From Candidatus Pacearchaeota archaeon (GTDB taxonomy: Archaea; Nanobdellota; Nanobdellia; Pacearchaeales; GW2011-AR1): a stretch of DNA of 57,373 nucleotides. The stretch is taken from assembly GCA_018303945.1 (NCBI GenBank), contig JAGVXD010000007.1, forward strand, positions 1 to 57,373, read 5' to 3'. The notes under the pieces were generated by a model, which saw only the letters and a list, made by a program, of their open reading frames with translations, was not told where the DNA came from and ran no database searches. Made by a program: the position numbers and the translations under genes. This document shows positions 1 to 54,078 of this stretch, in pieces (the first letter of the stretch is position 1; the number at the start of each line of letters is the position of its first letter).

Positions 1-46
1 AGTTACCAATGTACACTTTGAATGAGATGAATGAAGAAATCTCTTA

Positions 47-394: not shown

Positions 395-395
395 T

Positions 396-542: not shown

Positions 543-576
543 GCTCTCTATTATCAAAGTATCATTAAAAATTTAT

Positions 577-1631: not shown

Positions 1632-2533
1632 TTTTTTGTCTCCTGTTGTTGACTATATTTCTTCAAAACATCATTATAATTTCCACCTAAGAGAATGTTT
1701 GAAAATATTTCTCTTTTTAATAATATGTTTTTAATATAAACTGGAATTAAGACTAATATTTCTTTTTGAAGATTCATGAACTCATCAAAAGCGATAGGTA
1801 AATTTTTCCATTTAGGATTGAGTTTAAAAAGATGTTTAGTGCATGGATTGGAATCATCAAATTCTAATTCCTTGGCTAACCAACTTATAGTCACGTGAGC
1901 AAAGATATCTCTTATTTTAGAGATTTTCTCTAAATCTGACAATAACGGTGGTTCTGGGGAGTTTGGTAATTCTATTGAAGTAGATTTTTTGCCAAGCTGG
2001 CAATACCAACATAAAACCCCTACGTCTGGTATGTCTTCTTTACCAAAATTCTCATAATGAATATGATGGGTACTCAATTGCTCTGTGCTACCGCACTTGC
2101 TACATTTCTTAAAATAATTTATAAAATAACCGTCTTTCTTCTTCCATTCTTCACTCTGGATATAATCTCGATAAACAACTTCGTCATCCATCTTTTTTAG
2201 AATATTTTTTAAAATCCTTATTTTGTCGTTAAATCCTAATCCCCCAAGTTCATTTTTATTTTTAGCACCTGTAATCAAATGAAACTCTTTCTTTTCAGGA
2301 TTAATAACCAAATCTTCCCCGCCTGTTTTTGTAATAAGTTCGTCAAAGGCTGTTTCAAGAATTATTGAAGCCTCAATAACTCTTCCCCTTGCAATAACAA
2401 CTTCTTTATATTTTTCATTCAAATTAGGAATCTTTTCTTTTACAAATCTTTTAGATTCTTCAGTCATTCTATCTACGTCCGATATATTTTTCTCTTTTAT
2501 CAGATTATCAAATTCCTTTAAATCCTCAGTCAT
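1628..2533 (-). CDS. HNH-type zinc-finger nuclease motif embedded in a helical protein; R-M-linked accessory gene
   Basis: CSKCGSTEQLSTHHIHYENFGKEDIPDVGVLCWYCQ matches the CxxC...HH...N...CxxC HNH signature. The C-terminal IRDIFAH resembles the R-[ND]-x-x-A-H motif of Abi_2/DUF4145-type proteins (weak). ATGA overlap with the hsdS stop at 2530-2533. Confidence 0.6.
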   Translation of the reverse strand: MTEDLKEFDNLIKEKNISDVDRMTEESKRFVKEKIPNLNEKYKEVVIARGRVIEASIILETAFDELITKTGGEDLVINPEKKEFHLITGAKNKNELGGLGFNDKIRILKNILKKMDDEVVYRDYIQSEEWKKKDGYFINYFKKCSKCGSTEQLSTHHIHYENFGKEDIPDVGVLCWYCQLGKKSTSIELPNSPEPPLLSDLEKISKIRDIFAHVTISWLAKELEFDDSNPCTKHLFKLNPKWKNLPIAFDEFMNLQKEILVLIPVYIKNILLKREIFSNILLGGNYNDVLKKYSQQQETKK

Positions 2534-3729: not shown

Positions 3730-3733
3730 TATG

Positions 3734-5218: not shown

Positions 5219-5219
5219 T

Positions 5220-5609
5220 TTATTCTTTGAACCTCCTTATTGCTTCGGGTATATATGACTGCTTCTTCTTAATTTGTTTTAAGAATTTGTTTCTTTTATC
5301 AATACCTTGTTTCATAGCTAAGTATACACTTTCAACGAAATGTGGACCTAACTTGCTTGAAACGATTAGAGGATTACTTGTACCTGTATGAATTGCCCAA
5401 ATAAAAGAGTCTGATTCTGGGTCGTAAGTAAAATTGTTTTCTCCTATTGTAGGAAAAACGTTTTGGCTTGTGCCTTTAACTTTTTCTGTTTCTTTCTTAA
5501 TTAGACTTGCAACAAACTCATTTACTTTCTTCTTTTCTCTGTCGCAAATGATTTTCATTGCCCCGTAATCTTCTTCACTTATCTTTGCAGATATTGTTTT
5601 CCATTCCAT
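5220..5609 (-). CDS. ribbon-helix-helix-like small protein inside the R-M operon
   Basis: The N-terminus KTISAKISEEDYGAMKIICDREKKKVNEFVASLIKKE has a beta-strand/helix/helix pattern like CopG/Arc. The gene sits between hsdR and hsdM, and its stop is 2 nt from the hsdM start. Confidence 0.5.
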   Translation of the reverse strand: MEWKTISAKISEEDYGAMKIICDREKKKVNEFVASLIKKETEKVKGTSQNVFPTIGENNFTYDPESDSFIWAIHTGTSNPLIVSSKLGPHFVESVYLAMKQGIDKRNKFLKQIKKKQSYIPEAIRRFKE

Positions 5610-5680
5610 AACAAATCTTATGCAGAAGACTTTAAATACTTATTTGTATACAAATAATACATATTATGTATACATCTAGT

Positions 5681-8482
5681 CTAAATTTCCTTTTCTAAGT
5701 TAGTACACATAACAACAAGCTCTTTAAGTTCTTTATCGTTGAATAATGGTCTTGGTGCCTTGCCAATATTTGTAAATGGTACATCAAATAGGTCTTCCAT
5801 TGCAATATGTTTCCTAGCCATGAAAACACTCTTTAGTGTTATTAAGAATCTCTGCTGGTCTGCATTTAAGTCACTTCTTTCAATCATGTAAGTCTTGAAA
5901 GCTTCATCAATAATTTTCTTCGAATCTGGGAACTGATATAATCCCAATATCAATTTAATGAATTGAGTAAGTGTCCCTTTAGGTTTATCAAACGTCTTTC
6001 TAAGTGTTTCTTCAGTAATATATAACTCAGGACTATTGAGAGTATCTTCTAACTTCTTGATATCTGCTTCAGTCAAAACCTTGTTCTCTCTTATCTTTGA
6101 TAACGTAGGATGTTTCGCAGCTAGTTCTTTAATTCTTTTCTCTACTCTTTCTTTGTAGACTTTTACATATTCCTGTTTGGGATTTGATGCTGGTCCAAAC
6201 TCAATAAGTCTTCTTTGTTGAACAACATCATCTATGTCTAAAGTAATCTTTGGAACAGGTTCAGGTCGTTTATATTTCATCAGAGGTGCAATTTCTTTAA
6301 GGAGAGTTAAGGTATCAGTATATCTTATCTTATTCCAGAAAGGAGCTTCTGAAACCTTATCAAGTAATTCATTTTTCTTCTTAACATCATTAATTGTTCG
6401 TGGTAAGCAGTTTATATCTTCAACAATATCAACAGCTAGTCTGTCTATTTCATCTTGATTTTTATTTAATATAGCTAAACCCAATCTTTCTATTTTCAAT
6501 ACAAATGACTCTGTATCTAGGTTCACATTTTGTTTGAATCTCATAAGTGGCGTTATCTTAGTTCTTAAAAATTCAAATGCATCAAGTCCGATATTCTTCC
6601 AGATTTTTTCTGATAGAGCCGTGTCAACCTCTTCTCTTTTCTCCCTTATTGCAACAGATTTCATAGGTAGTGATTCTATGTCATTTTTTATTCTTTGGAG
6701 AACCTCTATTCCTTCAGGTTTATCTTTGATAATTTTATATTGATTAATTCTCGCTAAGAATATTCTTGAAGGCAAAGCTAAACTTGAACTAGGTTCTCTT
6801 CCTTGCGGATGCATATTGAACCAGTCGAAGTTATTCCAACAATCAAATATTAAGAAATTATCTTTTTTACCACCTGCTAGCCAATCTTTATGTTCGCAAG
6901 CCTCATCAGGTCTTGTTCCTCTACCAATCATCTGCCAAAACTTAATTTTTGAAAAGACAGGTTTAGCAAATACAAGATTAGAAACTTCTGGAATGTCTAC
7001 CCCCGTATCGAGCATATCCACGGATATTGCTATTCTTGGAAGAGAATCAGTTTTGAAATCTTTAAGTAAATCTTGAGCTCTAGAATCTTCTGAAGTGATG
7101 ATTACTGCAAGTTTACTCTTGTATTCAGGATAGAGTTTGTTAAATGCCTCCCATAATCTTTTAGCGTGTTGCTTTGATACAGCAAAGAATATTGTTTTTG
7201 CAGGCAGAATTCCAGCCTTATCCCATATGCAGTTGTCATAAAATTCTTTCACTATTGCTTCATTAGTTCCTTTGATTATAACTTTTCTTTCAATGTCTGT
7301 TCCTTCAAAGTTAATATCTTCATCTTCAATTCCTTTTTCCGATAATTCTTTCTTAATTGTTTCAGGTACATCTTTTGGTTTTACTCCTTCGATTTGAAAA
7401 TGAGTTTGAGAACTATGTACCCTAAATGGAACGAGCCAACCATCTGCTACTGCGTCGTCAAATTCATACAAGAATGTTGGACTGTCATCGCACTCAAAGA
7501 ATCTAAATGTGTCTCTATCCAATAAACCTGATGGCGTAGCAGTTAATCCGACTTGAACTGCATCAAAGTATGTAAATACATCTTTCCATTTATTATAGAT
7601 TGAACGATGAGCTTCATCTGAGATTATTAAATCAAAATCGCCAGGTGAGAAATCATGATAACATTCCATAAAAGTTTGAATCGTTGATGCATAAAGACGA
7701 GCATTTTTATCTAAGTTTCCAGAATATATTTTTTGTCTTGATTCGTTTGTAAACCATTTCTTAAAACCATCATTAAAAGCTTGGTCTCGAAGTGCTTTTC
7801 TATCAGTTAGGAATAATATCTTCTGAGCTCTTTTTGATTGCATTAAAATATCAATTAGTGCCATAGCAACTCTCGTCTTACCTGTTCCAGTTGCTTGAAC
7901 AAGTAGGAACTTTCTTTTTCCTTTCTTTATACCGTCTAATACTCTATTAACGGATTCGATTTGATAGTCTCTATTGATAATATCCTTTCTGATTTTTACT
8001 TGTGAAAATTCAAGCCTATTTGCATTTTGATATTTTAGTCTCTCCAATGCTTCAAGGCTATAGAATCCTTTAATCATTCTCATGCTCTCGTGTGGAGTAG
8101 GATGCTTCCAGTTCCAGAACCATATTTCATCACCATTTGATAAAAATATGAAAACTTCTTTTCCTGTTTGTCTAAAAATATCTTCTGCGTATTGTTCTGC
8201 TTGTTTCTTTCCTATAATCGGGTCTTTAGTTGTTCTCTTTGCTTCAATTATAGCAAGAGGGTCACCATTACTATCAAGAAGAAGATAATCAGCATACTTA
8301 CTCTCCAAATCATTTTTGAATGTCTCCGAAACTTCAAGATATTTTTGGTCTTTAAACTTGGATTGTTTTGTATCTATCTCCGTTCTAACCCTTGATGTGT
8401 CTTTAACATCCCAACCTTGTTCTTTCAAATAAACATCAATTCTTGTCTTCCTTGTTTGTAGTTCACTTAGGTATTGTTGCAT
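5681..8482 (-). CDS. hsdR: type I restriction enzyme R subunit HsdR (nuclease + SF2 translocase)
   Basis: N-terminal PD-(D/E)xK-like ADYLLLDSNGDPLAIIEAKR, Walker A QATGTGKT, DEAH box ISDEAHRS, and a long helical C-terminal domain. Confidence 0.9.
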   Translation of the reverse strand: MQQYLSELQTRKTRIDVYLKEQGWDVKDTSRVRTEIDTKQSKFKDQKYLEVSETFKNDLESKYADYLLLDSNGDPLAIIEAKRTTKDPIIGKKQAEQYAEDIFRQTGKEVFIFLSNGDEIWFWNWKHPTPHESMRMIKGFYSLEALERLKYQNANRLEFSQVKIRKDIINRDYQIESVNRVLDGIKKGKRKFLLVQATGTGKTRVAMALIDILMQSKRAQKILFLTDRKALRDQAFNDGFKKWFTNESRQKIYSGNLDKNARLYASTIQTFMECYHDFSPGDFDLIISDEAHRSIYNKWKDVFTYFDAVQVGLTATPSGLLDRDTFRFFECDDSPTFLYEFDDAVADGWLVPFRVHSSQTHFQIEGVKPKDVPETIKKELSEKGIEDEDINFEGTDIERKVIIKGTNEAIVKEFYDNCIWDKAGILPAKTIFFAVSKQHAKRLWEAFNKLYPEYKSKLAVIITSEDSRAQDLLKDFKTDSLPRIAISVDMLDTGVDIPEVSNLVFAKPVFSKIKFWQMIGRGTRPDEACEHKDWLAGGKKDNFLIFDCWNNFDWFNMHPQGREPSSSLALPSRIFLARINQYKIIKDKPEGIEVLQRIKNDIESLPMKSVAIREKREEVDTALSEKIWKNIGLDAFEFLRTKITPLMRFKQNVNLDTESFVLKIERLGLAILNKNQDEIDRLAVDIVEDINCLPRTINDVKKKNELLDKVSEAPFWNKIRYTDTLTLLKEIAPLMKYKRPEPVPKITLDIDDVVQQRRLIEFGPASNPKQEYVKVYKERVEKRIKELAAKHPTLSKIRENKVLTEADIKKLEDTLNSPELYITEETLRKTFDKPKGTLTQFIKLILGLYQFPDSKKIIDEAFKTYMIERSDLNADQQRFLITLKSVFMARKHIAMEDLFDVPFTNIGKAPRPLFNDKELKELVVMCTNLEKEI

Positions 8483-8539
8483 ATAAAACCCAAGAAAACC
8501 CTATTAAAAAGTCTTTCCTTATCAAGATATTAATATTAT

Positions 8540-9226
8540 TTATTCACAAGTATTATTATTTCTTAATATCTTCCATACAACAAATGTAGATGGATTTTTC
8601 TTATTCTTACTCCTATCATAATAATACGTTTGTTTGGAAATATCTTTTATAGATAGTGTTGGGTTATCCTTTTTTATTTTTAAAACATCCTCAGTTAATC
8701 TTTTATTATTGAAAACTTCTTTCCTTCCCCATTTATTTCCTTTATAGGATTGTGTTGGTTTACCATCTTCCTTTCTTACAGCATTCTTAATTCTATCTGA
8801 CTTTTTTTCGGATTCATCTTCCGCAATCCATCCTAAAATTTGTATCATCATAGAAAATAGTATTTCATTCCATGGCTCTGGTGCTTTATACACATCTTCC
8901 AACCAGTTTTGTCTGAGTGAGTAAATCCTACACTTAAACATCTTACAAACCTCAAAAAAACTAACTAACTTCTTTCTATTTCTATACAATCTATCTAAAT
9001 CCCAAACGATTATTATTTTTATATTGCTACGTTTGATTTCTTTTATAATAGTATTAAACACTTCTCTCTTATCATCGTTTTTGAAAGCTGACTTTTGTTC
9101 TTCTACAATATCATAATCATCTTCCCTCAAATTTAACTTCCTCACAATTTCCTTACATCCATTTAGTTGTAGTTCGGGAGTTTGTTCCGTTGTAGATGTT
9201 CTCAAATAGATTATGTTTTGTTTCAT
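8540..9226 (-). CDS. serine recombinase (resolvase/invertase family)
   Basis: N-terminal IIYLRTSTTEQ (catalytic Ser context), WDLDRLYRN motif, and a C-terminal basic HTH-like tail. Confidence 0.85.
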   Translation of the reverse strand: MKQNIIYLRTSTTEQTPELQLNGCKEIVRKLNLREDDYDIVEEQKSAFKNDDKREVFNTIIKEIKRSNIKIIIVWDLDRLYRNRKKLVSFFEVCKMFKCRIYSLRQNWLEDVYKAPEPWNEILFSMMIQILGWIAEDESEKKSDRIKNAVRKEDGKPTQSYKGNKWGRKEVFNNKRLTEDVLKIKKDNPTLSIKDISKQTYYYDRSKNKKNPSTFVVWKILRNNNTCE

Positions 9227-9390
9227 TATTTTATTATAGTTCCTTTTTTGTTTAGATAAAAATTATTGTTTTCATCTAATTTATTTAGTAAATTAAATAA
9301 TGAACGTACAAAAATATTATTATTTCCCGTAAAGAGATTACTATGAATCCCAACTCTCCTATTATATATGTGTGATATGCTGAGTTAACT

Positions 9391-9483
9391 GCTATGTAAG
9401 TCTAGCTCTCTCGTTCAACTCATTTAATTGATTCGATTCAACTCAATTAATTAAGTTCAATCATGGATTTGTAGCTACATAGC
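9391..9483. repeat. iteron-like direct repeats bracketed by an 8-bp inverted repeat (candidate res/origin/operator site)
   Basis: TTCAACTCATTTAATT (9414-9429) and TTCAACTCAATTAATT (9437-9452) are direct repeats with one mismatch, plus a partial GTTCAA. GCTATGTA (9391-9398) and TACATAGC (9476-9483) form an inverted repeat around them. The site lies in the 290-nt gap upstream of the serine recombinase gene. Confidence 0.4.
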
Positions 9484-9516
9484 GGTAAAATACCAAAAGC
9501 GAGGTATAGGATTGGA

Positions 9517-9705
9517 TTATTGTGTTACTCCTATTTGCTTTCGGAAGTTATTTTTCAAAATCCAAATGAGAATACAGATTATAATGAGAGAGAACAAACT
9601 GAAGATGGCTAAAAAAAGGACAAGGTTCTCGATGCCTTTGTTTCCGATACACTGAATAAAAGTTGGCACGTTCTGTGTTGTAGAGTTGATAGTCTGATTG
9701 TTCAT
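9517..9705 (-). CDS. hypothetical small membrane protein
   Basis: 62-aa ORF with one strong TM helix (LVLFLAIFSLFSLIIICILIWIL). 4-nt overlap with the upstream ORF. Confidence 0.4.
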   Translation of the reverse strand: MNNQTINSTTQNVPTFIQCIGNKGIENLVLFLAIFSLFSLIIICILIWILKNNFRKQIGVTQ

Positions 9706-9935
9706 TTCTTCTTTTTCCTTCTACTCTTTTCTATCTGGTGCAAGAATTGAAAACACTCTAAAGAAGTATTGAATATTCCTACCATTATCCATACGTTATC
9801 CTTGTTCTCTATGAAAGCATTCCAATTAGCAATTAAAGTACCCATAAGAGTATCTATATGGAAGCATTGTTGAGCATAGCTCCATACTAGCACATAGGTG
9901 TTGTTTAGATCGATTGGTCGTGTTTGAGAGGTCAT
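9702..9935 (-). CDS. hypothetical protein
   Basis: 77-aa ORF, co-oriented and overlapping the next ORF by 4 nt. No motif recognised. Confidence 0.4.
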   Translation of the reverse strand: MTSQTRPIDLNNTYVLVWSYAQQCFHIDTLMGTLIANWNAFIENKDNVWIMVGIFNTSLECFQFLHQIEKSRRKKKK

Positions 9936-10050
9936 GTTAAAATCACTATATTTTCCTTATTTTGCATATTATTCATAGTATTGTTTTTATTATGCATATT
10001 ATAATTTAAATATAAAAAATATAAAGAATAGGAATAATATGGATAATTAC

Positions 10051-12342
10051 TCATGTTAAGGTCTCCTGTTTTTCTAAATCTTTAATCGATAGTTGCGGAC
10101 ATTGTAGATCTGTAATGGAGTTAAAGATAGGAATGGTTATCTCAAAATAACTTCCTTTATTTGTATCGAAAGTTCTATAATCCTTGAACCCCAATTTATC
10201 TAGGTGTGATGATATGGTTTTATTGTATCCTTTGTCTTTAACACCAAGACCGCTTGTTGCACCACCATTAATAACTTCTCTTATTTCCTCAACATAGATT
10301 TTATCATCCTTATTTGATATGTGATATTTTCTCGTTAAGATTTCCTTTAAACAGCTCAATACCTTATAATCAGTTGTGCCTTCACTCAATAGATCTGCTC
10401 TTCTTAAGTTAGAAGTTTTTTCAGCGAATAAGAGAATGTCTTCATACAATTTAGCGTCTATGATTTTGGCTAGAACTAAAATAGGTTTCCATATCTGCAA
10501 GTCTCGCTTTTTAATCCCATACTCTTTCCCTTCTTTATTAACGCCGATTTGAAAAGTTAAGTACTCATCATAAATCCTTTTCCAATTCTGTAATGTAAAC
10601 AAATAACATTTATTCCTTATCTCTTTCCATTTAACATCATTTATATCATCCTCTGGATCCCTTTCTCCCCTTTTATCATTATCTGGAGATTTTGTGTGTA
10701 TTTGAGTAATTGCTCGGTTTTCAGTTGCTCCAAACAATCCAGTAATAGAACTAATCATAGTTGGAGAATAACAATGATATCTCTTAGTCACATACTTGTT
10801 TCCTTGTTTTTCTTGTCTTAGAACAGCTCCATTTCTTGTGTATGAAGCATTAATTAGCTCCACTCTGTTATCTGGTTCCATTCCTTCCTTAGTCCATTTA
10901 AACAATCTTTCTGCTTCATCTATGTATTTAGTTGGGCGAATACATTCAGTTTCTCTAAATAATGTAGCTTCTGAAGGATTAATCATTATATCAGTTGCAT
11001 TAAGAGTTATGTAAGAACTTACCACCATAGTTTTAGTTTTTGCAGTGCCAGATAGCCCTCTATTTTCAAAGATTGGATAAGCCGAGAATACCTGATGTGA
11101 GTAGGTTCCAATATCCCAAAGAGCGTGTATATAATACAATAAAGGTTCTCTGAAATAGAGATAATACTCATACTGCTTTTTTATAGCATCTAATAAATCT
11201 TTTCCACTAACTTTTTCAGGATTCTTATGAACATAAGTATCTATATCCTCAAGCTCCCATCTTAATTTCATAAAATATGGTATTTCTTCAAATTTAATCT
11301 TATAATCTTTCTGAAACCAGCTTCCGTAAGTTAGCCCTCTTCTGTCTGAGGTTATTGAAACAGGCCTCCAGATTTGAGTTTTTCCCGTTATATTGCCTTT
11401 TTTATCAAAAGTGTCCTCTTCTCTTGGGAGTAATAATCCAAATCCAAAAATACTATCATTCAACAGATGTGAGCTAAAAACTCGATTTTGAATTATCTCA
11501 TTTTTATCAAATATAAATGTCTTCAGGTCGTTATTCTCTCGTGATTCTTCTTTTTTTTCTGACTTTAATCTTTCTTGCAGATAAAAAGCTTCGGCACTTT
11601 CAAAAGTTATTTTTTTATATTGCTCAGGTGAAGAAGCCCATTTACTATATGCTTCCATTATCTTATAAATTTCTTCTCTATTCTTTCCTTCTCTCAACAA
11701 TGCAAGAATTCTTCTATACTCTAAACCGCTTCTGCTTGTATCTTTACCTTTGCTTTTTGTTGCTTTGGTTATTGGCGCTTCTTCTCTCAAATAAGGTTTA
11801 ATCAACTCTAACAAATCTTTAGAAGATATTTCTGCAATCGGAATATCTTTTATTATTTCATAATAATTTCCAGATGGATGCTTGCATGGTGCAGAAACTA
11901 CTTGGTATTTATTTGCTCTTAACTCTCCTTGCTTATTAATAAGAACATGATTTTTTTTATAATCCGATATAAAATAAAAATGAACGCCTCCAGAGCCAGT
12001 TCTTACAGCAAAGGTATTCAATTGTTTTAATAGCTTCTCTGCAAGTTCTTTATCATCAATATCTAAAATTATTAGATCCCCATAACCGCCGATAACTCCA
12101 AAATTGTGTTGATGATTTATTAATTTCACATCATCAAACTTGTAATTATTTTTAGTTTGCCATTCTTTCTCGAAAGGAGATTTTCCTAATGGCTTCCAAT
12201 CTTTATTCTTCTTATGTTCCAAATAATCTTTTAGTTCCACAATAATTACAGCTTTTGATATGTTATGCTTCCAAGTATTCCAACCACCTAGTAAAACAAA
12301 TCTAAACTTAGGATTTTGTAGCTGTTTAGGAACTGATGTCAT
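10051..12342 (-). CDS. replicase: archaeo-eukaryotic prim-pol domain fused to a P-loop NTPase/helicase-like domain
   Basis: Prim-pol motifs LIILDIDDKE (DxD) and VRTGSGGVHFYF (sGxGxH). Downstream lie the Walker A-like GLSGTAKTKT and Walker B-like KYIDEAE. 763 aa, a size typical of plasmid/viral replicases. Confidence 0.8.
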   Translation of the reverse strand: MTSVPKQLQNPKFRFVLLGGWNTWKHNISKAVIIVELKDYLEHKKNKDWKPLGKSPFEKEWQTKNNYKFDDVKLINHQHNFGVIGGYGDLIILDIDDKELAEKLLKQLNTFAVRTGSGGVHFYFISDYKKNHVLINKQGELRANKYQVVSAPCKHPSGNYYEIIKDIPIAEISSKDLLELIKPYLREEAPITKATKSKGKDTSRSGLEYRRILALLREGKNREEIYKIMEAYSKWASSPEQYKKITFESAEAFYLQERLKSEKKEESRENNDLKTFIFDKNEIIQNRVFSSHLLNDSIFGFGLLLPREEDTFDKKGNITGKTQIWRPVSITSDRRGLTYGSWFQKDYKIKFEEIPYFMKLRWELEDIDTYVHKNPEKVSGKDLLDAIKKQYEYYLYFREPLLYYIHALWDIGTYSHQVFSAYPIFENRGLSGTAKTKTMVVSSYITLNATDIMINPSEATLFRETECIRPTKYIDEAERLFKWTKEGMEPDNRVELINASYTRNGAVLRQEKQGNKYVTKRYHCYSPTMISSITGLFGATENRAITQIHTKSPDNDKRGERDPEDDINDVKWKEIRNKCYLFTLQNWKRIYDEYLTFQIGVNKEGKEYGIKKRDLQIWKPILVLAKIIDAKLYEDILLFAEKTSNLRRADLLSEGTTDYKVLSCLKEILTRKYHISNKDDKIYVEEIREVINGGATSGLGVKDKGYNKTISSHLDKLGFKDYRTFDTNKGSYFEITIPIFNSITDLQCPQLSIKDLEKQETLT

Positions 12343-12515
12343 CTATTCACCTCTTTAATAAAGTCAATTGAACTCTCCTTAATACAAACCTTAGAATTAG
12401 TCTTGTCAATTAGAGTGATAGAATTGTCATCGGTTGCAATAACTAGACCGATATAAGTGAAGCCATTCCCGAGAATAATTTGCACTCTTTTATTTAGATA
12501 TTTATTTAATTCCAT
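12339..12515 (-). CDS. 58-aa protein, possibly a small beta-barrel (Sm/SH3-like), coupled to the replicase
   Basis: Hand translation below the track cut-off: MELNKYLNKRVQIILGNGFTYIGLVIATDDNSITLIDKTNSKVCIKESSIDFIKEVNR. Its TGA overlaps the replicase ATG (ATGA at 12339-12342). The fold guess comes from the alternating beta pattern only. Confidence 0.45.
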   Translation of the reverse strand: MELNKYLNKRVQIILGNGFTYIGLVIATDDNSITLIDKTNSKVCIKESSIDFIKEVNR

Positions 12516-12518
12516 GAT

Positions 12519-12671
12519 TTACTCCTTAATATCTCCCTTCTTCATCTCCTGTAATTTTTGAAGAGATTTCCAATCTTTTTTTTGAATAAGTTCTGCTTCA
12601 GCTTCAGCATATGCTTGTAATTTTGCTTTTGTATGAAGTTCCACCATCATGTTATCAAAATCGCTACCCAT
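12519..12671 (-). CDS. hypothetical small helical protein
   Basis: I start at the internal ATG (MGSDFDNMMVELH...), which is preceded by GAGGAGAG. Charged coiled-coil-like sequence. Confidence 0.35.
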   Translation of the reverse strand: MGSDFDNMMVELHTKAKLQAYAEAEAELIQKKDWKSLQKLQEMKKGDIKE

Positions 12672-12825
12672 TTTTCTCTCCTCTTGTAATCCTACCTTTC
12701 TCTTCCACAATCTTTTTTAACAATTGATTAACTTCATAAGACATAGAAGAATCCATTTGCTGAATTATCTTAGTAGCCTTTTGTTTTAAGTCACCATCAA
12801 CGGTAACCGACATCATTGTTTTCAT
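12664..12825 (-). CDS. ribbon-helix-helix (CopG/Arc-like) DNA-binding protein
   Basis: MKTMMSVTVDGDLKQKATKIIQQMDSSMSYEVNQLLKKIVEE shows the beta-strand then two helices typical of RHH. The internal ATG was chosen over the longer track ORF. Confidence 0.5.
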   Translation of the reverse strand: MKTMMSVTVDGDLKQKATKIIQQMDSSMSYEVNQLLKKIVEEKGRITRGEKNG

Positions 12826-12912
12826 AAAACAATTTATAAATAAATATTTATAAACCACAATATTATTTTTATGCTGTAGTTTTATAGAATAATAATATTA
12901 TTTTTTAATAAA

Positions 12913-13242
12913 TTATAACTTTGGGGGAAATTGCTTTCTTATAAGTTCATAGAAGTAAGATTGAGATGGAAATTGCTTTGGAAGTAGGTTGTGTTTTTTA
13001 CATAATTCTCTTTTTATCTTTTCATATTTGTACTTTTTAGAGAGATATGATATCCCGTATATTTCTTTATCTTCTGTTTTAAATCTATGATATTTTAACC
13101 CAACATCACTATCTACTCTCATACTATCATTATCGAATCTACTACGTTGTCCTTTTCTTAAATCTTCAAAAAAGGTAAAAATATCTGCTAGTAGCTCTTT
13201 AGAATATTTAATTACCCTACCCTTTCTTTTATCTATTTTCAT
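12913..13242 (-). CDS. hypothetical basic protein
   Basis: 109-aa ORF with a 4-nt overlap with the integrase stop. No motif recognised. Confidence 0.45.
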   Translation of the reverse strand: MKIDKRKGRVIKYSKELLADIFTFFEDLRKGQRSRFDNDSMRVDSDVGLKYHRFKTEDKEIYGISYLSKKYKYEKIKRELCKKHNLLPKQFPSQSYFYELIRKQFPPKL

Positions 13243-14531
13243 TTTCTTGACTCGCTTAAAATTTCTTTCTTAAGTTTATCTTTTAGTTCTTTCATCAAAT
13301 TTCCTTTTAGGTCTTCCATATCAGCTTTTAATTTATTCAGTTCTTCACCCTTCATCTTATTCTCATAACTTTGTTTATCCATTTGATGTTTTAATTCACT
13401 TATTTCAGTATTGACAACGTCCTTAGTAACTTCCTTAAACATCATCTTAGATTTTCCACCACCATATCTTGCCTTCATCGGGCTACCATATCTCCATCCA
13501 AAAAAGTAATCCATTTGTGAATCCGAAAATCTTTCTCTTAACCAGTTAGCACTAGAATGACGGAATAGATGGAAGTGTAGAATCATATTTGCACGTTTTC
13601 CTATTCTCTTAATCATATTATCACTTGAAGCATATGGTGTTACCCATACAAAATCCTCTTGAGATTTAAATTCAAAATAATGTTTACGTTTTTCCAACCC
13701 CTTCTTACGTTCCTCTACAAAATCTCTTACTGCTTCTAAAGAATTCTTATAATATAACGGAATAGTTCTACCTTCTGTTTTGGAGTTTTCAGTTCTTAAT
13801 GTTAGTTTACAGAAGTTTTCTTTCCCTTCTGGAAATTCAATATCACTAAATCTAATATTCAAAAATTCAGCTATTCTAGCACCGCTTGAAAACAACATAG
13901 CTATCAAATATTTCTCCTCAGAATTTGAACATTTTTTATAAAGTTTATCAACTTCATCTTCACTTATAACTACAACACTTTTCTCTTTATGTTTTATCCT
14001 AGTTCTTAATGATTGTGTTAATGGAGCATACTTTGTAACCGCTAACGCTGGGTTTTTTGAGTAGATATTCTTAAATCTCCATTCAATATAAGTAGCCAAC
14101 TGCATACGATATTGTTTTTGTGTTTCAAAAGACTTTTGGATTTCGCCCTTATTTAATCTCCTTACAAAATCATCTACCTGTTTAACGGAAAGTTCATCAA
14201 CAGGTTTCTTTAGTATTTCTAAAACAGCTTTTAGAGTTAAAGCATAGCGGGATAATGTTTCTCTATTTTCGTTAGTAAACGCATTAGTGCTAATCTTACC
14301 CAGTTCATAATCAGCTAAATATTTTTTAAGAAATGGCTTCTCTTTCTTTGGAAATTTACTCCAATCATATCTCCAATAGGTTTTATGGAAACGATTCTTT
14401 GGAATAATCACAAACTTACCCTCAATTCTAATATCTCCAATCTCATCGGATAGCTTTATTGTTTTATCAATAGCTTCCACTATTATGTGATATATTGGCT
14501 TCTCTATGATTATTCTTTCCATAGTATACAA
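13239..14531 (-). CDS. tyrosine recombinase / integrase
   Basis: C-terminal catalytic-domain signatures: GARIAEFLNIRFSDI (Arg I), HLFRHSSANWL (H-x-x-R), and a later GWRYGSPMKARYGG region with the candidate Tyr. N-terminal SAM-like/arm region. Confidence 0.8.
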   Translation of the reverse strand: MYTMERIIIEKPIYHIIVEAIDKTIKLSDEIGDIRIEGKFVIIPKNRFHKTYWRYDWSKFPKKEKPFLKKYLADYELGKISTNAFTNENRETLSRYALTLKAVLEILKKPVDELSVKQVDDFVRRLNKGEIQKSFETQKQYRMQLATYIEWRFKNIYSKNPALAVTKYAPLTQSLRTRIKHKEKSVVVISEDEVDKLYKKCSNSEEKYLIAMLFSSGARIAEFLNIRFSDIEFPEGKENFCKLTLRTENSKTEGRTIPLYYKNSLEAVRDFVEERKKGLEKRKHYFEFKSQEDFVWVTPYASSDNMIKRIGKRANMILHFHLFRHSSANWLRERFSDSQMDYFFGWRYGSPMKARYGGGKSKMMFKEVTKDVVNTEISELKHQMDKQSYENKMKGEELNKLKADMEDLKGNLMKELKDKLKKEILSESRK

Positions 14532-14559
14532 TATACCCCAACGTATATATACTTTTATA

Positions 14560-14580
14560 CCTTCTTAATTATTAAGAAGG
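14560..14580. repeat. perfect 9-bp/3-nt-loop palindrome CCTTCTTAA-tta-TTAAGAAGG
   Basis: Read directly. It spans the stop codon of the 112-aa ORF and lies 29 nt upstream of the integrase start codon. Confidence 0.5.
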
Positions 14581-14910
14581 TTTTAACAATCCTTTATCAA
14601 TCAAATCGCTATCTTTCTTCATATCAGTTAATTCTTGTGAACCTAAAACTACCTTAAAGCGCCTGCCCTCATAAGCTCCTTTGGCAGGGTAGGCAAAACC
14701 ATCCCCTGAATCAAAATAGTTAGCATTCCAATCACTTTTAGGAGAATTTGCTTTTCTTTCCATGATTACATAAACGGGAGCTAGAACTCTTCCTGCAGCT
14801 TTAACTTCTGATGCTCTTTTTACATTCAGACCATAAAACTCTTTGAAGAAAGGTATTTCTAGCCCATCAGTTCTTATATGTTCTTGTTCAGTGTTCAAAT
14901 CTAATCCCAT
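14572..14910 (-). CDS. hypothetical protein
   Basis: 112-aa ORF, somewhat G+C-richer than its neighbours. No motif recognised. Confidence 0.4.
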   Translation of the reverse strand: MGLDLNTEQEHIRTDGLEIPFFKEFYGLNVKRASEVKAAGRVLAPVYVIMERKANSPKSDWNANYFDSGDGFAYPAKGAYEGRRFKVVLGSQELTDMKKDSDLIDKGLLKPS

Positions 14911-15458
14911 GCTTTCTTGGAGAAATAGGAGTTTATAAACTTTTCGCTTATGTTACTACTAAATAATAATATGTAATGTTGCCCCATAAGCTATCTGAGA
15001 AACTTGAGTTATCCAAGTTACATCTCGGGCAAATAAGAATATGGTGAGTGGCTGTTAGAGTCAATTTTAGAGTTCTTCTCTTTCTAAGAAAAGAATAATT
15101 GGTACTTTTTCAGAGCAAAGCTCTAAATCTTTTAGTCCTTTTTTAAGCTCTTCTTGCTCTTTTAAGTAATTCAATACTTTTTCTGTTGATTTATTTGTTG
15201 CCATCTCTTTTATTTCTATATACGATAAAACCTCCAAATATTATAAAGCTCTGGGCTAAAAAGGGACTTTTTAGTCGTTTTTCAGATGTGGAAAGCTCAG
15301 AAATATAATATAGTTAATGACCAAAACTGACCTTTTAGCCTTTTTCCGCCTAAAAAACTATTCATAAAATCCGCTAATTCCGCGTTTTTACTGTATGAAA
15401 AAGTAAACATATGTGCAGAAAAGTAAACAATTTTAAAGTTAGAGCTATTGCAAGAAAG

Positions 15459-15824
15459 ATGAAAAAAGAAGTTATTTATCTTGTTGGGGATAGCGGTCCA
15501 GAACATAATTCTGTTAGAAGTATTCATAAAACTCGTGAAGGTGCTTTCAAACCATGGAACAAATTAAGACTTGATTTATTACACGAAGCAGAAGATGGCT
15601 TAAAATATAGTAAAGAAGATGCTGAGAGAAATTTGAAGGATGGAAAATGGTCTGAAGATAGACCATTTACTCAAGAGAATATAGATTATTTCAAAAAAAT
15701 TAAGGAAAAAGGTGATGAGATGTATCTTGATATGATAAAAAGCCTATCTTGTGAAGATCCTGAGAAGATAGACAACAGTCCACACGATACTCCCTATATT
15801 CAAAAAGTAGAAGTTGAGAATTAA
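15459..15824 (+). CDS. hypothetical protein
   Basis: ORF taken from the internal ATG (MKKEVIYLVGDSGPEHN...). Charged and soluble-looking. No motif recognised. Confidence 0.45.
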   Translation: MKKEVIYLVGDSGPEHNSVRSIHKTREGAFKPWNKLRLDLLHEAEDGLKYSKEDAERNLKDGKWSEDRPFTQENIDYFKKIKEKGDEMYLDMIKSLSCEDPEKIDNSPHDTPYIQKVEVEN

Positions 15825-15944
15825 GTAGTATGTCAATAATGTCATAATATTATGTTACTTATACCATAATGAAATAATAACAACTTTGTTTCTAAAAATG
15901 TCATAAAATAGCATTATTAGAAACGAGAAAAACGTTAGTTGTGC

Positions 15945-15965
15945 AGTGCAAGCTGTGCTTGCACT
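15945..15965 (+). terminator. 9-bp perfect hairpin AGTGCAAGC-tgt-GCTTGCACT downstream of the 15459-15824 gene
   Basis: Read directly. It is G+C-rich relative to its surroundings. Function as a terminator is an inference. Confidence 0.3.
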
Positions 15966-16025
15966 TCGCTTTCCAAGATTATATCTTTTATTGTTTAAAT
16001 TCTTCATTTCAAGAATAGGCAATAA

Positions 16026-16691
16026 ATGCCTAAATCTGAAACAACACGAAAGATTTATATACGATTAAACCATAGAGCATTTATGAATTCAATAAATAGA
16101 ATACATGAAGCTCTTATAAATAGAGGCAAAATCTTCACGAAGAAGGAGATTTTAGATTTATATGAGGAATATAAGAAAGTCAATCCAAGCATTCATCACA
16201 AGAGTTTAATTGCAGATTTATCTAAAAATAGATACATAAAAAGAATCTTTCTTGGCTATTATTACATCAATTCTTATGATGAGAGAAAAAGAGGATATTC
16301 TGAATACTCAGATAAAGAGCTTTTATTCTGGGTACTGAATAAAGAGAAGATAAAGTGGTATCTTGGACTTAATACTGCAATTTATGAGCAAGGAAAGACA
16401 TGGCAAACCCCTAATAAGATTAACATAATAAATACCAGATTAAGCGGAGATAGAAAAATAGTTGGGCTTAATGTTAGATTCATAAAAACTAAAGAAAATC
16501 TCATCTTTGGACTAAAGGAATTAAAAACAAAAAACGATATTGTTTATTTTTATTCTGATCCTGCAAAGACCTATCTAGATAAGGTCTATTTTGGAGAATC
16601 TAATAATTTAATAAGCGTGAAGAACACTCAAGAATACTTAAAGAGGTATCCAAAATGGGTTGGCAAGAAATTAACAAAAGCAAATATATAG
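16026..16691 (+). CDS. abiEi: AbiEi-like antitoxin/transcriptional regulator (type IV TA)
   Basis: 221-aa basic protein immediately upstream of, and overlapping, a clear AbiEii gene. The call rests on size and position; its own motifs are weak. Confidence 0.55.
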   Translation: MPKSETTRKIYIRLNHRAFMNSINRIHEALINRGKIFTKKEILDLYEEYKKVNPSIHHKSLIADLSKNRYIKRIFLGYYYINSYDERKRGYSEYSDKELLFWVLNKEKIKWYLGLNTAIYEQGKTWQTPNKINIINTRLSGDRKIVGLNVRFIKTKENLIFGLKELKTKNDIVYFYSDPAKTYLDKVYFGESNNLISVKNTQEYLKRYPKWVGKKLTKANI

Positions 16692-17581
16692 AACAAATAA
16701 AGAAGAGTCTTAATCTGAATAACCATGAAGATATCTTGGAGAAGGATCTTCTTTTGACATTAATTTTGGCTGAATTTGAAAAGAAAGGATTGGGAAAAGA
16801 TTTGATATTCAAAGGCGGAACTTTGCTTTCAAGAAATTATCTGAAATATCATCGCTTCTCTGAGGATTTGGATTTTGTCTTTAAAGATTCAAATGCTATA
16901 AGGGATTTAGGAAGGAATCCTCGAGAAAGAAAAGTTAAGATATTCCTAGATAATTTTGTGCCTGAACTAAAAAATGTCGCTGATACTCTTGGACTTGATT
17001 TTAGCACAGATAGGAGCAATAAGAAATATTGCAAGATGCTAAGTGGAAGAACCGTTTATACCTTCAAGATATATTATTCAGAAAATAAATACATAAAGGT
17101 AGAGATAAATTTCGTAGAAAAGATAATTGATACTCCAAAGAATACCTCTGTAAAGGCGATAACTGATTTTTTCGATTCAAAGGAACTTTTATTTTCTCTT
17201 GGACTAAACTATCAGAATTTCAATGTCCTTAATTATTCCCTAAAGGAGATTACCTTAGAGAAGTATAGGGCCACTTTAACAAGGAAGAAACTTCAAGAAA
17301 GAGACTTATTTGATTTGTTTTTGATAAAAGATTCCCTTAAAGCAGATATAGGTGAGATTATTGAAAAGATAAATAACTCTTCACTTATTAAAACCGATTT
17401 AACTAGTTTAATTACTGAAAAGCTTGATCTTCTTCTAAAGGATAAATTCTTTGAAAGCGAGGAAAAGATAGAAGAGCTTGCAATATCCTCATATGAAAAG
17501 AAGGAATTTGAGTATTTCAAAGAAAAGATTAAACCTATTCTCATAGATATTTGTAATAAATTTTTGGAAAGTAATAAATGA
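16655..17581 (+). CDS. abiEii: AbiEii/DUF1814 nucleotidyltransferase toxin (type IV TA, abortive infection)
   Basis: LIFKGGTLLSRNYLKYHRFSEDLDFVF matches the KGGTAL...R-x-S-x-D-hD-F signature of the AbiEii nucleotidyltransferase family. Confidence 0.85.
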   Translation: MGWQEINKSKYIEQIKKSLNLNNHEDILEKDLLLTLILAEFEKKGLGKDLIFKGGTLLSRNYLKYHRFSEDLDFVFKDSNAIRDLGRNPRERKVKIFLDNFVPELKNVADTLGLDFSTDRSNKKYCKMLSGRTVYTFKIYYSENKYIKVEINFVEKIIDTPKNTSVKAITDFFDSKELLFSLGLNYQNFNVLNYSLKEITLEKYRATLTRKKLQERDLFDLFLIKDSLKADIGEIIEKINNSSLIKTDLTSLITEKLDLLLKDKFFESEEKIEELAISSYEKKEFEYFKEKIKPILIDICNKFLESNK

Positions 17582-18141
17582 TAGATAAGAAAATGATGAA
17601 TTTTGCAATTGAGGAGTTTGATAGCGCTTGGCAGGAATTCTTTGAAGATAAGTCTGAACCTAAAGATGATGAGGAAGATAAAAAACAGCAAGAAGAATTT
17701 TATCATTGGTATAATTTTGTAAGAAAGCAGAGCGATACTGGAAAGACTCCTGCTGAGATGTATAAAGAGATGTATGGAGAAGAGCCACCTCAAAATATGG
17801 AAGAGGTTAAACCCAGCAGAGTAATGAGTTTTGGGTGGGATGATGAATATGACGAAGAAGATTTTGAAGGCGAGGATGAATTAGATTATGCTCAGGAAGA
17901 AGCGGTTGTTATCGCAACTAAAATATTTGAAGATAGTTGGAAAAGAATAAAACAAGAAGTTGAAGGAGTTAGTAAAAGAGAAGCGTGCAAGTATTCTTTC
18001 ATTTTAGGATTCTTGGATTATCTTAAAATGATGGATAAAAAAGCTGAACAATTAGAGAAGAAGATAAAGGGCATGTCAAAAGAAGATATAGAAAAGATGG
18101 TTGAGGATTTTAAGGATTATGAAGAAAAAAGAAAGTCTTAA
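17578..18141 (+). CDS. highly acidic 187-aa protein, coupled to abiEii
   Basis: ATGA overlap with the abiEii stop (17578-17581). Long D/E runs (KDDEEDKKQQEE, WDDEYDEEDFEGEDELDYAQEE). Confidence 0.55.
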   Translation: MIDKKMMNFAIEEFDSAWQEFFEDKSEPKDDEEDKKQQEEFYHWYNFVRKQSDTGKTPAEMYKEMYGEEPPQNMEEVKPSRVMSFGWDDEYDEEDFEGEDELDYAQEEAVVIATKIFEDSWKRIKQEVEGVSKREACKYSFILGFLDYLKMMDKKAEQLEKKIKGMSKEDIEKMVEDFKDYEEKRKS

Positions 18142-18847: not shown

Positions 18848-19330
18848 TTATTCCGTAATAAATCGACTCAAAAAGCTAATATAATCAAACTTCGGAATAG
18901 CTATTCTTACTCTGCCACGTCGATTAGGAGCAGAACGCCATTGAAAGTCGAAACATCCAAGCATCTCTAAAGTATCCAAATAAACCCTAAATTGCCTTTC
19001 TCCGACCGCACCAAAGTGCTCGTTTTTGGCATTAAAAACATAGTTTTTGTAGGCATCTGGGTAAGTTATAGCGTAACCGCCGTTTACTTTAGTATTTACA
19101 CATAGAGCCAAGATTGTAATCTTAAGATGTCTTGATAAAGTTGGGAATATCTTTTCAATTTCAGATAATTGTAACTCTTTTATTGCTTCTTTGACTACTG
19201 TAAGCTTAATTTCGACAACAGTTTGTGGTTTTAAGTCTTGCTGTAAAAATTTTGGAATTACAATTATCGCTTGGTGGCCGTGTTTGGCTATTTTCTTTGT
19301 TAATACGTAACTTTTTGGTTTTTGTGCCAT
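18848..19330 (-). CDS. AbrB/SpoVT-like swapped-hairpin domain fused to an Orc1/Cdc6-type winged helix
   Basis: The N-terminus KIAKHGHQAIIVIPKFLQQDLKPQTVVEIKLTVV fits the AbrB/MazE pattern. The C-terminus FRVYLDTLEMLGCFDFQWRSAPNRRGRVRIAIP resembles the Cdc6 C-terminal WH (yl..L...G.i......GR.GRtR). Pattern-based only. Confidence 0.5.
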   Translation of the reverse strand: MAQKPKSYVLTKKIAKHGHQAIIVIPKFLQQDLKPQTVVEIKLTVVKEAIKELQLSEIEKIFPTLSRHLKITILALCVNTKVNGGYAITYPDAYKNYVFNAKNEHFGAVGERQFRVYLDTLEMLGCFDFQWRSAPNRRGRVRIAIPKFDYISFLSRFITE

Positions 19331-19440
19331 TTTATATACTTTTTATGTATAAAATATCTATTTAAACCTTTCTATTAGTGTATCTTTATAGTGGTAACTA
19401 AAATACTCTATTTGACCTTAATTATCTTCTTAAACAGGAT

Positions 19441-19800
19441 TATCCAGGTGTTCATGCCCTAGAGGGTTGTCGACTTCGTTCTACTACCTTGTAGAATACT
19501 AACGAAGACAAGACTTAACAGGCTACACGCATAACCATAGTGTTTTCCCCGAAAGGAAAGCCAATAAAATACAGCAATAACAGTTAGTAGCAGTGAAGAG
19601 CCTTGGGTAAGCTTGGAGCGAATATTCGCGTTGCAGTGATACTTAATGGAAGTGCTACAACTGTCGCGAGGTTCAACGCGAATTCGGATAGGACTAACCT
19701 GAACTGCAACAGGAATCCGACGAACTCTTATGCTAGACTTGGGGTATTTGAATGCGCCGAAGGCGCTGACGCAAAAATTGGAAGAAATTGCAAGGGAAAA
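19441..19800 (-). ncRNA. candidate structured RNA of unknown class (G+C-rich, helix-dense, non-coding)
   Basis: Hand count gives 161/360 G+C (~45%) in an AT-rich context. Only junk-like overlapping ORFs are present. There are at least six complementary segment pairs (see finding). U.G pairs favour the minus strand. Boundaries are approximate. Confidence 0.4.
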
Positions 19801-19801
19801 T

Positions 19802-21001
19802 TTAATATATGTTAGCAAAAAGCGCTTTTTCTGCCCATATCTTCTTTGCAGTAACTTCATGGCGAGTATCATAAAATGGTGCCCCTTCTGGACCTTTTGT
19901 ATAAGGAGCAATCCAAATAATTTTTTTAATCTGCATATTTTCATCTCTTAATTTTCTATTGTGCCCTCTTACTGCTAATTGATATGTTAAAATCTGACCT
20001 TTATGATGGTTTTTAGGTTCATCGTAGGATTCATCTCTAACTTCAACAAATGAATATGGTTTTGTTTCAACAGGTCTTTCAGGATGGTATGTTGGAGTAC
20101 CTGGACGATTTCTTGTTGCAATTGTCATATTATGGGCATTTATGTAATTGATAAGATTTGTTGACAAGCTAGGAACAATGTCAATAGCGCTGTGCGGTAC
20201 AGAACTTAAAGATACTTCTTTATCAAATAACTCATTAAAATCAACTAATTCGGTAGCTTTTCTATATAATGCATGTCCCAATGCAGCTTCTTTTTTGGCA
20301 CTTTGGGCAATCCACAATCTATCCTTGTTTATATCAATTATAAACTGATATCTATTTTTATCCAATTTTTGATTATCCAAGTCAAAATTTGACCTTGAAA
20401 GATGATTAACTTGCCCACGGAAAAATTTGGATCTTGGGTCACTCATAAATAAATCAATGCTCATTATTTCTCCTTCTTTGTCTTTCCAAAATGAAGTGAA
20501 CACATAGTTCATTGAACCGCTTTTGTTATTTCCGCATAAATAAACACCTTGCAGAGAAACTTCAGACCTTTTTACATGTGGAATTGTTGCTGAAACGTTT
20601 TCAGCAAACTCAAAGAATAAAGGATTAAAAGGCAATTTACCTGTCGTAATATAGTCATAATTATCAACTGGCTTATCTAATAGGCTTTCAAGAGTTGCAG
20701 GACCTATTAAGAATGGGTGGGCTCTCGCAAAATTGCGCCTAAATTGAATGGCGCCTGTAAAATTATCTAAATCCATTTCGGCATAAGGCTTGTAAAAGTC
20801 AGGGCATCGAAATGGTATTTCAATGACCTCTCCAAATGATGGACTTACATGACTGAAGACAAAAGATTTAGTATTAGCTATACCGAACTTAGCATCAACT
20901 TGTCTTTGCATTTTCTTTAATCTGGCTTTGTCTTCTTCATCCTTTTTTCTAAATAAGGAAGCCAATTCATCATAAAACCATGTTTTGCTATCTAAATTCA
21001 T
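19802..21001 (-). CDS. hypothetical 399-aa protein (orphan)
   Basis: Long clean ORF with protein-like composition. I recognised no nuclease, NTPase or zinc-finger motif. The C-terminal VRGHNRKLRDENMQIKKIIWIAPYTKGPEG is distinctive but unassigned. Confidence 0.65.
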   Translation of the reverse strand: MNLDSKTWFYDELASLFRKKDEEDKARLKKMQRQVDAKFGIANTKSFVFSHVSPSFGEVIEIPFRCPDFYKPYAEMDLDNFTGAIQFRRNFARAHPFLIGPATLESLLDKPVDNYDYITTGKLPFNPLFFEFAENVSATIPHVKRSEVSLQGVYLCGNNKSGSMNYVFTSFWKDKEGEIMSIDLFMSDPRSKFFRGQVNHLSRSNFDLDNQKLDKNRYQFIIDINKDRLWIAQSAKKEAALGHALYRKATELVDFNELFDKEVSLSSVPHSAIDIVPSLSTNLINYINAHNMTIATRNRPGTPTYHPERPVETKPYSFVEVRDESYDEPKNHHKGQILTYQLAVRGHNRKLRDENMQIKKIIWIAPYTKGPEGAPFYDTRHEVTAKKIWAEKALFANIY

Positions 21002-22048: not shown

Positions 22049-22396
22049 TTCTTTAGCAGTCTTTCTTGCAGATACTTCTAAGTAAAAATAATATAATATC
22101 TCAATTTCTATAAGCCATATTTATCACAAAATATGCATTTTCTACCAAGAAAATACACGTCTGACGACACTTTTCTCATATATCTCGTCGTATTTAAGCT
22201 AATTTATAAGCTTTTTTGGTGCTAAAATGTATCAATTACCTAATATTTTAATGTTCTTATTTAATAAAAATATCGTAGTGAGGCTAGTGGGTATTGCACC
22301 TAGTTTGAGCAATAAAGCTCTGATAAGTTGAAACTGCCGCAGATAGAAAAGTTTATATGGGCAAATAATTTTGCTATGGCATACGGAGGTATAACA

Positions 22397-24177: not shown

Positions 24178-24296
24178 ATATTTAAAGATATGGAGAATTG
24201 CGTAGGTTTATTACATATTTGTACTCAATTCTCTAATGGATAATTGAAGGAGTTTGAGCAATAAAAGCTTATAAATAAAAGACTCTTATAAACAAG

Positions 24297-33174: not shown

Positions 33175-33224
33175 AATCCCATCGTGACAAACTATGGGGT
33201 ATAAGACCCATTTGGAGCAATTAA
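33175..33224. repeat. copy A of a ~50-60-nt intergenic repeat (24-nt identical core GGTATAAGACCCATTTGGAGCAAT)
   Basis: The core at 33198-33221 is identical to 54045-54068, and the flanks AATCC[CT]ATCG... also align. Both copies lie between convergent genes, just 3' of an anchored surface-protein gene. Confidence 0.6.
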
Positions 33225-33233
33225 AGTTATTAG

Positions 33234-45076: not shown

Positions 45077-45127
45077 TAATATTGTTTAAATTCATTAATT
45101 CAATATTTACTCTGTAAAAAAGAGAAA

Positions 45128-54071: not shown

Positions 54072-54078
54072 GAGGTTT

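Follow-up and report, generated by a model that had tools for sequence, protein, structure and literature searches.

The window (the whole stretch of 57,373 nucleotides of Pacearchaeota DNA that was analyzed) contains at positions 19441-19800 a stretch whose G+C content is 44.7% (161/360, exactly as counted in an earlier note on this DNA), compared with 35.1% for the entire window; the 300-nt flanks are AT-richer, as that note had also remarked (27.7% and 33.7% G+C). The three overlapping ORFs that had been described across this region are indeed there. The AT skew of +0.24 makes the plus strand of the stretch A-rich, which is the expectation for the template of a diversity-generating retroelement (DGR). 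At 19802-21001 on the minus strand lies a 399-aa gene, regarded earlier as an orphan, for which 14 homologues of 28-65% identity were found in groundwater and other metagenomes, where they sit in unrelated gene contexts; only one of these homologues (P0010) has a precomputed Pfam match, to PF26125, and NCBIfam gives no match. The neighborhood at 1-17600 resembles a mobile and defense island, with type I restriction-modification genes (HsdR, HsdM, HsdS), a serine resolvase, a tyrosine integrase, a 763-aa primase-polymerase protein and, preceded by a partner ORF, an AbiEii toxin gene.

The stretch had been proposed to be a helix-dense structured RNA of unknown class. Comparison with Rfam gives instead a full-length match on the plus strand to the RT-16 family (RF03019, model positions 1-158), with a score of 59.7 bits and an E value of 1e-6 for the whole window, where the gathering score (the curated cut-off) of the family is 50 bits. 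The class is thus a known one, and the novelty of the stretch, which the earlier note itself had said a clean Rfam match would remove, goes with it. The features of the locus are collected in Table 1.

Table 1. Features of the RT-16 locus, in coordinates of the window. TR, template repeat; VR, variable repeat; RT, reverse transcriptase.
Feature	Position	Strand	Remarks
S1 (CCCUAGAGGG)	19457-19466	+	5' half of the outer part of the long-range helix that closes the DGR RNA
P1 hairpin	19474-19507	+	7-bp stem 19474-19480/19501-19507 enclosing an inner CUAC/GUAG stem
RT-16 match	19488-19663	+	Rfam RF03019, 59.7 bits
S2 (UUAACAGG)	19515-19522	+	5' half of the inner part of that closing helix, immediately upstream of CUACACGC
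P2, 5' strand	19529-19538	+	pairs with 19646-19655; closes the RT-16 core
Invariant block AUAAAAUACAG-CAAUA-ACA-GUU-AGUAG	19564-19590	+	columns invariant in 16-20 sequences
P3, 5' strand	19574-19578	+	within the invariant block; pairs with 19630-19634
P4, 5' strand	19581-19583	+	within the invariant block
Mutated core motif UCGCG	19626-19630	+	near-invariant UGAAG in the family
P3, 3' strand	19630-19634	+	pairs with 19574-19578
P2, 3' strand	19646-19655	+	pairs with 19529-19538
GCUAC	19654-19658	+	end of the RT-16 core
TR-type repeat body	19665-19737	+	~80% identical to the L016 TR
IMH-type motif TGGGGT	19740-19745	+	VR (recipient) form replacing the TR form TGGAAT
Target-site hairpin GCGCC-GAA-GGCGC	19754-19766	+	GRA triloop; encodes Ala-Glu-Gly of the target-protein tail
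Remainder of target-protein tail (…RLGVFECAEGADAKIGRNCKGKFNIC*)	19767-19815	+	in frame with the repeat; conserved CGCAAAAAUU block

The description of the stretch as helix-dense is not borne out by its fold energy: compared with dinucleotide shuffles, the MFE gives z = -1.60 for the plus strand and -1.48 for the minus strand, with no significant excess on either strand, and 8-9 of 100 shuffles fold equally well. The complementary segments listed in the note do lie where it placed them, and four of these are exact (the P1 stem, 19630-19637/19703-19710, 19664-19668/19677-19681 and 19754-19758/19762-19766), whereas 19691-19701/19710-19718 is complementary only in part and several of the listed pairs are not conserved pairs; the pairing of 19630-19637 with 19703-19710 is not retained among homologues. 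A blastn search of the stretch against phage and plasmid collections gave no useful match, two pattern scans of viral contigs returned zero matches and one spurious match (L001) without RT-16, and a scan for bacterial-type promoters and terminators was uninformative, the host being an archaeon.

The resemblance of the window copy to RF03019 extends from the full-length match above the cut-off to the individual elements of the structure. P1 corresponds to the variable 5' hairpin of the Rfam model, and the complementarity of its stem is exact; 8 of the 10 P2 pairs and all five P3 pairs form; and the blocks GGCUACACGC, AUAAAAU-CAG, ACA...AGUAG and GCUAC are all present. The invariant block that carries the 5' strands of P3 and P4 also includes the AGUA of the sarcin-ricin-like loop, a loop of this type having been noted for RF03019 (PMC13085918). 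The window copy differs from the family in that no RT gene follows it, in that its score is the lowest among 21 RT-16 family matches (62-104 bits for the others), and in that UGAAG, in columns at least 90% conserved across the family, has become UCGCG. This change breaks the pair of P4 between C19581 and G, the window being the only sequence with a CC mismatch at that place, and it is also the source of the palindrome GCGAAUAUUCGC (19618-19629) that had been seen earlier.

When representative genomes were scanned with the invariant block ATAAAATNCAGNNNNNACANNNAGTAG, 45 loci were returned (designated here by L and a number), 19 of which are true homologues with RT-16 scores of 62-104 bits. All 19 are from archaeal MAGs (Nanoarchaeota, Woesearchaeota, Pacearchaeota, Micrarchaeales and Methanosarcinales), and thus mostly from DPANN and Methanosarcinales. 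In those homologues with enough contig, an RT ORF with YVDD starts ~150-210 nt past the anchor on the same strand, and these ORFs match RVT_1 at E values of 5e-22 to 1e-27. The RT-16 match ends no more than 3 nt from a repeat of 70-93 nt, a second copy of which lies in a neighboring gene, and the two copies mismatch almost only at adenines of the RT-proximal copy (adenine/other mismatches of 15/0 in L017, 18/0 in L018, 19/0 in L030, 13/0 in L032, 11/0 in L052 and 11/0 in L016). A TR/VR pair that differs at TR adenines is present in at least 12 related loci, and among the 19 homologues the target gene is usually upstream of the TR. Repeat differences restricted to adenines are the TR/VR signature of DGRs, and RT-16 is therefore placed as the 5' flank of the TR in archaeal DGRs; as read from sequence comparison, RT-16 is the structured 5' domain of the DGR RNA in DPANN and Methanosarcinales. 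Inspection of ORFs, made without a family search, revealed no evident Avd-like ORF after the RT in these relatives, and the group II RT model gives their RTs 163-166 bits, below its cut-off of 300.

The conserved helices of the core are supported by covariation. RNAalifold applied to an independent MAFFT alignment of 16 cores recovers P2, P3 and P4; P2 and P3 both covary across the 16 sequences, as do P3 and P4 in the alignment of homologues. Compensatory changes occur at 9 of the 10 P2 pairs and at 14 of the 18 pairs of P2-P4 together, in which pairing holds for 94.4% of cells and covariation scores 0.70, compared with 0.27 for shuffles and 0.07-0.15 for slid controls. The note was right that the stretch is no ordinary protein gene, and its claim of a structured RNA stands for about half of the stretch (19488-19663), where the helices covary, and fails for the 3' third, which is considered below.

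In the homologues, core and template are enclosed by a further, long-range helix. The TR ends in (C/G)(G/A)AAU(A/G) in 19/19 homologues, and the 16-20 nt after this end pair back in two parts, to S2 (the 7-9 nt immediately 5' of CUACACGC) and to S1 (a segment upstream of the P1 hairpin); in 18 homologues the segment equivalent to S2 pairs with the nucleotides just past the TR 3' motif. The sequences of S1/S2 and of S2'/S1' vary among loci while their complementarity is retained, such that cognate S1/S2 : S2'/S1' duplexes average -21.7 kcal/mol vs. -12.8 kcal/mol for non-cognate ones (Mann-Whitney p = 9e-11). The RT start codon lies within about 20-30 nt of the TR end, and this interval consists mostly of the closing strands. 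In the window the two 5' strands are recognizable and their partners are not: S1 is conserved with L016 and L057, where CCUCUAGGG directly after the TR pairs with it, and no complement of S1 occurs downstream in the window, while the partner of S2 is missing as well, the downstream duplexes in the window (-13 to -16 kcal/mol) falling in the non-cognate range. The groundwater contig L057 is the sole L016-like relative obtained from a metagenome scan for close relatives, in which no intact version of the window locus was found, and its homology to L016 begins just before the S1 block. In L057 (400-1460 and 1470-1780), ORFs that resemble transposases by eye end ~10 nt before S1 of the L016-like RT-16/TR cassette, which favors S1 as the 5' boundary of the conserved unit.

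S1, P1, S2 and the RT-16 core of the window are closely related to those of L016 and L057, and the repeat body that follows is of TR type. It starts 2 nt after the RT-16 match, like that of all homologues, shows 17 differences in 82 nt from the verified L016 TR, and retains all adenines of the latter except two in the IMH motif. Its A content of 32% and its 7 AAY codons lie inside the range of TRs and outside that of VRs, where the reference is a set of 12 related DGRs (TRs, 23-36% A and 5-13 AAY; VRs, 5-24% A and 0-4 AAY). The 3' end of the repeat is of the other kind. The TR-type end (GGAAUR) of the 19 homologues is absent from the window copy, and the IMH has the form TGGGGT, in which, or in a close variant of which, most related VRs end. 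From 19738 the sequence runs CTTGGGGTA, then the GCGCC-GAA-GGCGC hairpin, then CGCAAAAAUU, and this segment aligns with the VR 3' flanks of L050, L017, L042, L018, L030, L043 and L015; hairpins that are identical or nearly so stand after the VRs of L017, L042, L050, L018, L030 and L043. In frame, the tail reads …LGVFECAEGADAKI… up to a stop codon at 19813-19815 (ORF 19603-19815), and its comparison with the VR 3' flanks gives the consensus GCGCCGAAGGCGC..CGCAAAAAATT. A tblastn search with the C-terminus of the L016 target matches 19663-19761 (E 0.036), the sole match of that target. Loss of the TR end through a deletion of 19 nt, as compared with L016, was considered and rejected, as the 3' flank is VR-type in its IMH, hairpin and tail. 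The 3' third is thus not RNA structure of the RT-16 kind, since it consists of TR joined to VR 3' flank and target-protein tail, and the possibility raised in the earlier note of a degraded coding sequence is realized in part.

The other parts of a DGR were sought in the window. An intact target gene is absent: the L017 target has no significant tblastn match, only the in-frame tail remains, and a protein search with the 50-aa tail finds only the window's own ORF. No RT was detected in the 57 kb by Pfam (ORFs flanking the locus and those of 1-37 kb), by a six-frame scan for YxDD, or by tblastn with the RTs of relatives over the whole window; tblastn of the relatives' RTs, targets and AAA ATPase against the window hits the TR region only. 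No VR was found in the 57 kb either, the best candidate being a 22-nt chance-level match at 35240-35261.

The stretch is probably the chimeric relic of an RT-16-type archaeal DGR ncRNA cassette, read from the plus strand. In the RNA of intact relatives the order is S1, P1, S2, the RT-16 core (P2-P4 and the invariant loops), a TR ending in GGAAUR, S2', S1' and the RT start codon, and pairing of S1 and S2 with S2' and S1' closes core and TR into one domain. By analogy with the Bordetella phage DGR, the core may serve as a platform that holds the RT and places the TR 3' end for priming, a job that in the phage system belongs to the spacer 3' of the TR. The adenine-mutated cDNA would then replace the VR at TGGGGT (the IMH) and the GRA-loop hairpin. 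In the window S1, P1, S2, the RT-16 core and the TR-type body are followed from about 19738 by a VR 3' flank. Judged from this anatomy alone, the chimera most likely arose when TR and VR, in direct orientation, recombined homologously, which would have deleted the RT together with the target-gene body; the ancestral layout that this requires, with the VR downstream of the TR and in direct orientation, is not the commonest among the 19 homologues. The relic is most likely inactive, because it has no RT, no TR-type end and no closing strands and its core motif is damaged; it could be transcribed and doing something.

A chimera of this form might also arise by aberrant retrohoming, in which cDNA synthesis continued past the TR 5' end into RT-16 and farther upstream and the product was inserted at the target IMH, replacing the gene body. 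The 3' junction coincides exactly with the IMH and hairpin, the normal site at which cDNA and target are joined, and the 5' part comprises all of the RNA upstream of the TR, from S1 onward. This route is nevertheless unlikely, as DGR cDNA is expected to be adenine-mutated and the repeat keeps its 32% A and 7 AAY codons; with the exception of the two in the IMH motif, all adenines of the closest TR (L016) are kept, which disfavors an origin from mutagenized cDNA.

The locus could be instead a working template cassette without an RT of its own, served in trans by a DGR RT elsewhere in the genome, which is seen here over 57 kb only, such that an RT and a matching VR could exist outside it. A precedent comes from L044 (a Pacearchaeota MAG), where a second RT-16 and TR cassette (2580-2778 on the minus strand in original coordinates, 87.6 bits) lies ~4.3 kb from a complete cassette (6951-7195, minus strand) and has no RT ORF after it. 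This arrangement suggests that one RT can serve two template cassettes, and cassettes lacking an RT can thus be normal. The second cassette of L044, however, keeps a GAAUA-like end and its closing strands, whereas the window copy has neither the GGAAUR end nor the two closing strands present in 19/19 homologues and carries a recipient-type IMH and target hairpin in their stead; in addition its UGAAG is mutated, its Rfam score is the lowest of the family, and there is no VR within the 57 kb. A role as template in trans is for these reasons quite improbable.

Near-identical repeats such as TR and VR (70-90 nt) are a classic place for misjoins, and an assembler that skipped from one to the other in an intact DGR could have produced the same order of parts. 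The junction is real, however, since the sequence is identical in at least seven independent assemblies. In 10 fetched loci, 19000-20100 (1101 nt) shows 100% identity, and one more locus, on a contig that stops at 19312, does so over 789 nt. The samples and the assemblers (MEGAHIT k141 among them) differ, and the contigs measure 22-163 kb. The two flanking genes with their 471-nt spacer are found again in many public assemblies, and the locus is present in 40 or more metagenomes, on contigs that reach 0.2-1 Mb. The exact runs shared by TR and VR of relatives are moreover short (18 nt at most in L016), and the mutated core motif likewise suits an element in decay, so that an assembly artefact is very improbable. 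Because all copies found are identical, they provide no population evidence for or against constraint.

Hardly credible is the view of the earlier note, in which a structured RNA of a new class would begin past the stop codon of the 399-aa gene on the minus strand and, as a speculation, serve the island genes. The local G+C excess and the many short complementary segments speak for it. Against it, the minus strand has no significant fold-energy excess, and the choice of that strand from G.U pairs is wrong: the Rfam match, the covarying helices, the A-rich template, the RTs downstream in homologues and all gene contexts are those of the plus strand, a tie to the 399-aa gene was rejected because its 14 homologues occur elsewhere in varied contexts with no adjacent RT-16, and nothing was found in support of a guide, scaffold or antitoxin role.

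The chimeric relic can be compared with several known systems. In the work of Weinberg et al. (2017; PMC5737381), RT-1 to RT-19 are only motifs that occur near RT genes and could be part of retrons or DGRs, and RT-10 is connected with the DGR of the Bordetella phage. In nanoarchaeal DGRs the IMH is TGGGGT at the VR and the IMH* is TGGAAT at the TR, and a GRA-triloop hairpin lies within the target gene (Paul et al., 2015; PMC4372165). The window shares with these archaeal DGRs an A-rich TR-type repeat, the IMH TGGGGT and the GRA-triloop hairpin in the target tail, and differs from them in lacking an RT, a VR partner, the IMH* and the body of the target gene, and in that its TR-type body is joined to a VR-type flank. 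The Bordetella phage DGR has a structured RNA 3' of the TR, and a distal duplex between upstream and downstream segments helps to stop cDNA synthesis (Handa et al., bioRxiv 10.1101/2023.10.23.563531). The S1/S2 : S2'/S1' helix of the RT-16 relatives is a point of likeness to this BPP-1 RNA (TR plus 3' spacer Sp; Rfam RT-10). Unlike BPP-1, the RT-16 class has its structured domain 5' of the TR, with the TR about 20-30 nt from the RT start, and no Rfam RT-10 match was found at the locus. Retron msr/msd is similar to the RT-16 relatives in having a structured RNA beside a same-strand RT gene; however, the TR/VR pairs of the relatives, with their adenine-specific differences, are a DGR hallmark, and no Rfam retron family matches at the locus. 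No group II intron family of Rfam was found in 19250-19950 at E values up to 10.

The object in the window is most likely a degenerate representative of kinds already known (Rfam RT-16 and DGRs) and no new RNA class. What had appeared as a G+C-rich "RNA island" becomes an annotated DGR relic, and the case for a new class is removed. RT-16, which in Rfam is only "near RT genes", is placed as the TR 5' flank in DGRs of DPANN and Methanosarcinales, with an architecture that differs from that of the only DGR RNA studied in mechanistic detail and in which a covarying long-range helix encloses the template. The loss of a DGR may occur by its own TR-VR recombination, leaving a recognizable chimera. 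The current understanding of DGRs is not overturned; the wider value lies in what the comparison reveals about RT-16-type DGR RNAs. A bolder reading, which we regard as unlikely, would take RT-16 as an archaeal class of DGR RNA with a permuted layout, its RT-binding or priming domain 5' of the template, closed by the covarying bipartite helix and with no spacer between TR and RT, and would take the window as a natural TR x VR recombinant that is not inert, perhaps a homing recipient or decoy for a DGR elsewhere; this last possibility comes from the presence of the IMH and target hairpin beside an intact RT-16 5' half.

The survey of homologues also revealed a simple-sequence tract inside 10 of the RT genes linked to RT-16 (L015, L017, L023, L029, L030, L032, L037, L043, L044 and L046), at ~+600 to +900 nt from the RT-16 anchor and in most cases just before the GMPLGNLTSQ motif. 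The tract is a run of 7-13 G, a run of 12 C or an AG-dinucleotide repeat of 26 nt, and the RT frame is split at it in 10/10 cases, by +1 in some and -1 in others; in the five tract-free loci (L016, L018, L040, L052 and L053) the RT ORFs are intact. Slipped-strand ON/OFF switching, slippage-dependent expression and homopolymer assembly error are all possible causes.

Elsewhere in the window, two tRNA genes on the minus strand (38031-38158 and 45127-45212) are paralogous, with 86-92% identity that extends ~40 nt upstream. The former, identified by Rfam and missed by ARAGORN, has a 47-nt anticodon-loop insert, an archaeal-type intron; the latter is a tRNA-Leu (aag) according to ARAGORN. An intergenic repeat (…ATGGGGTATAAGACCCATTTGGAGCAATAAA…) occurs at 22283-22317, 24232-24266, 33177-33225 and 54024-54072, after several genes; it contains an internal hairpin, two of its copies are 83% identical over 48 nt, and a role as terminator or small regulatory element is conceivable.
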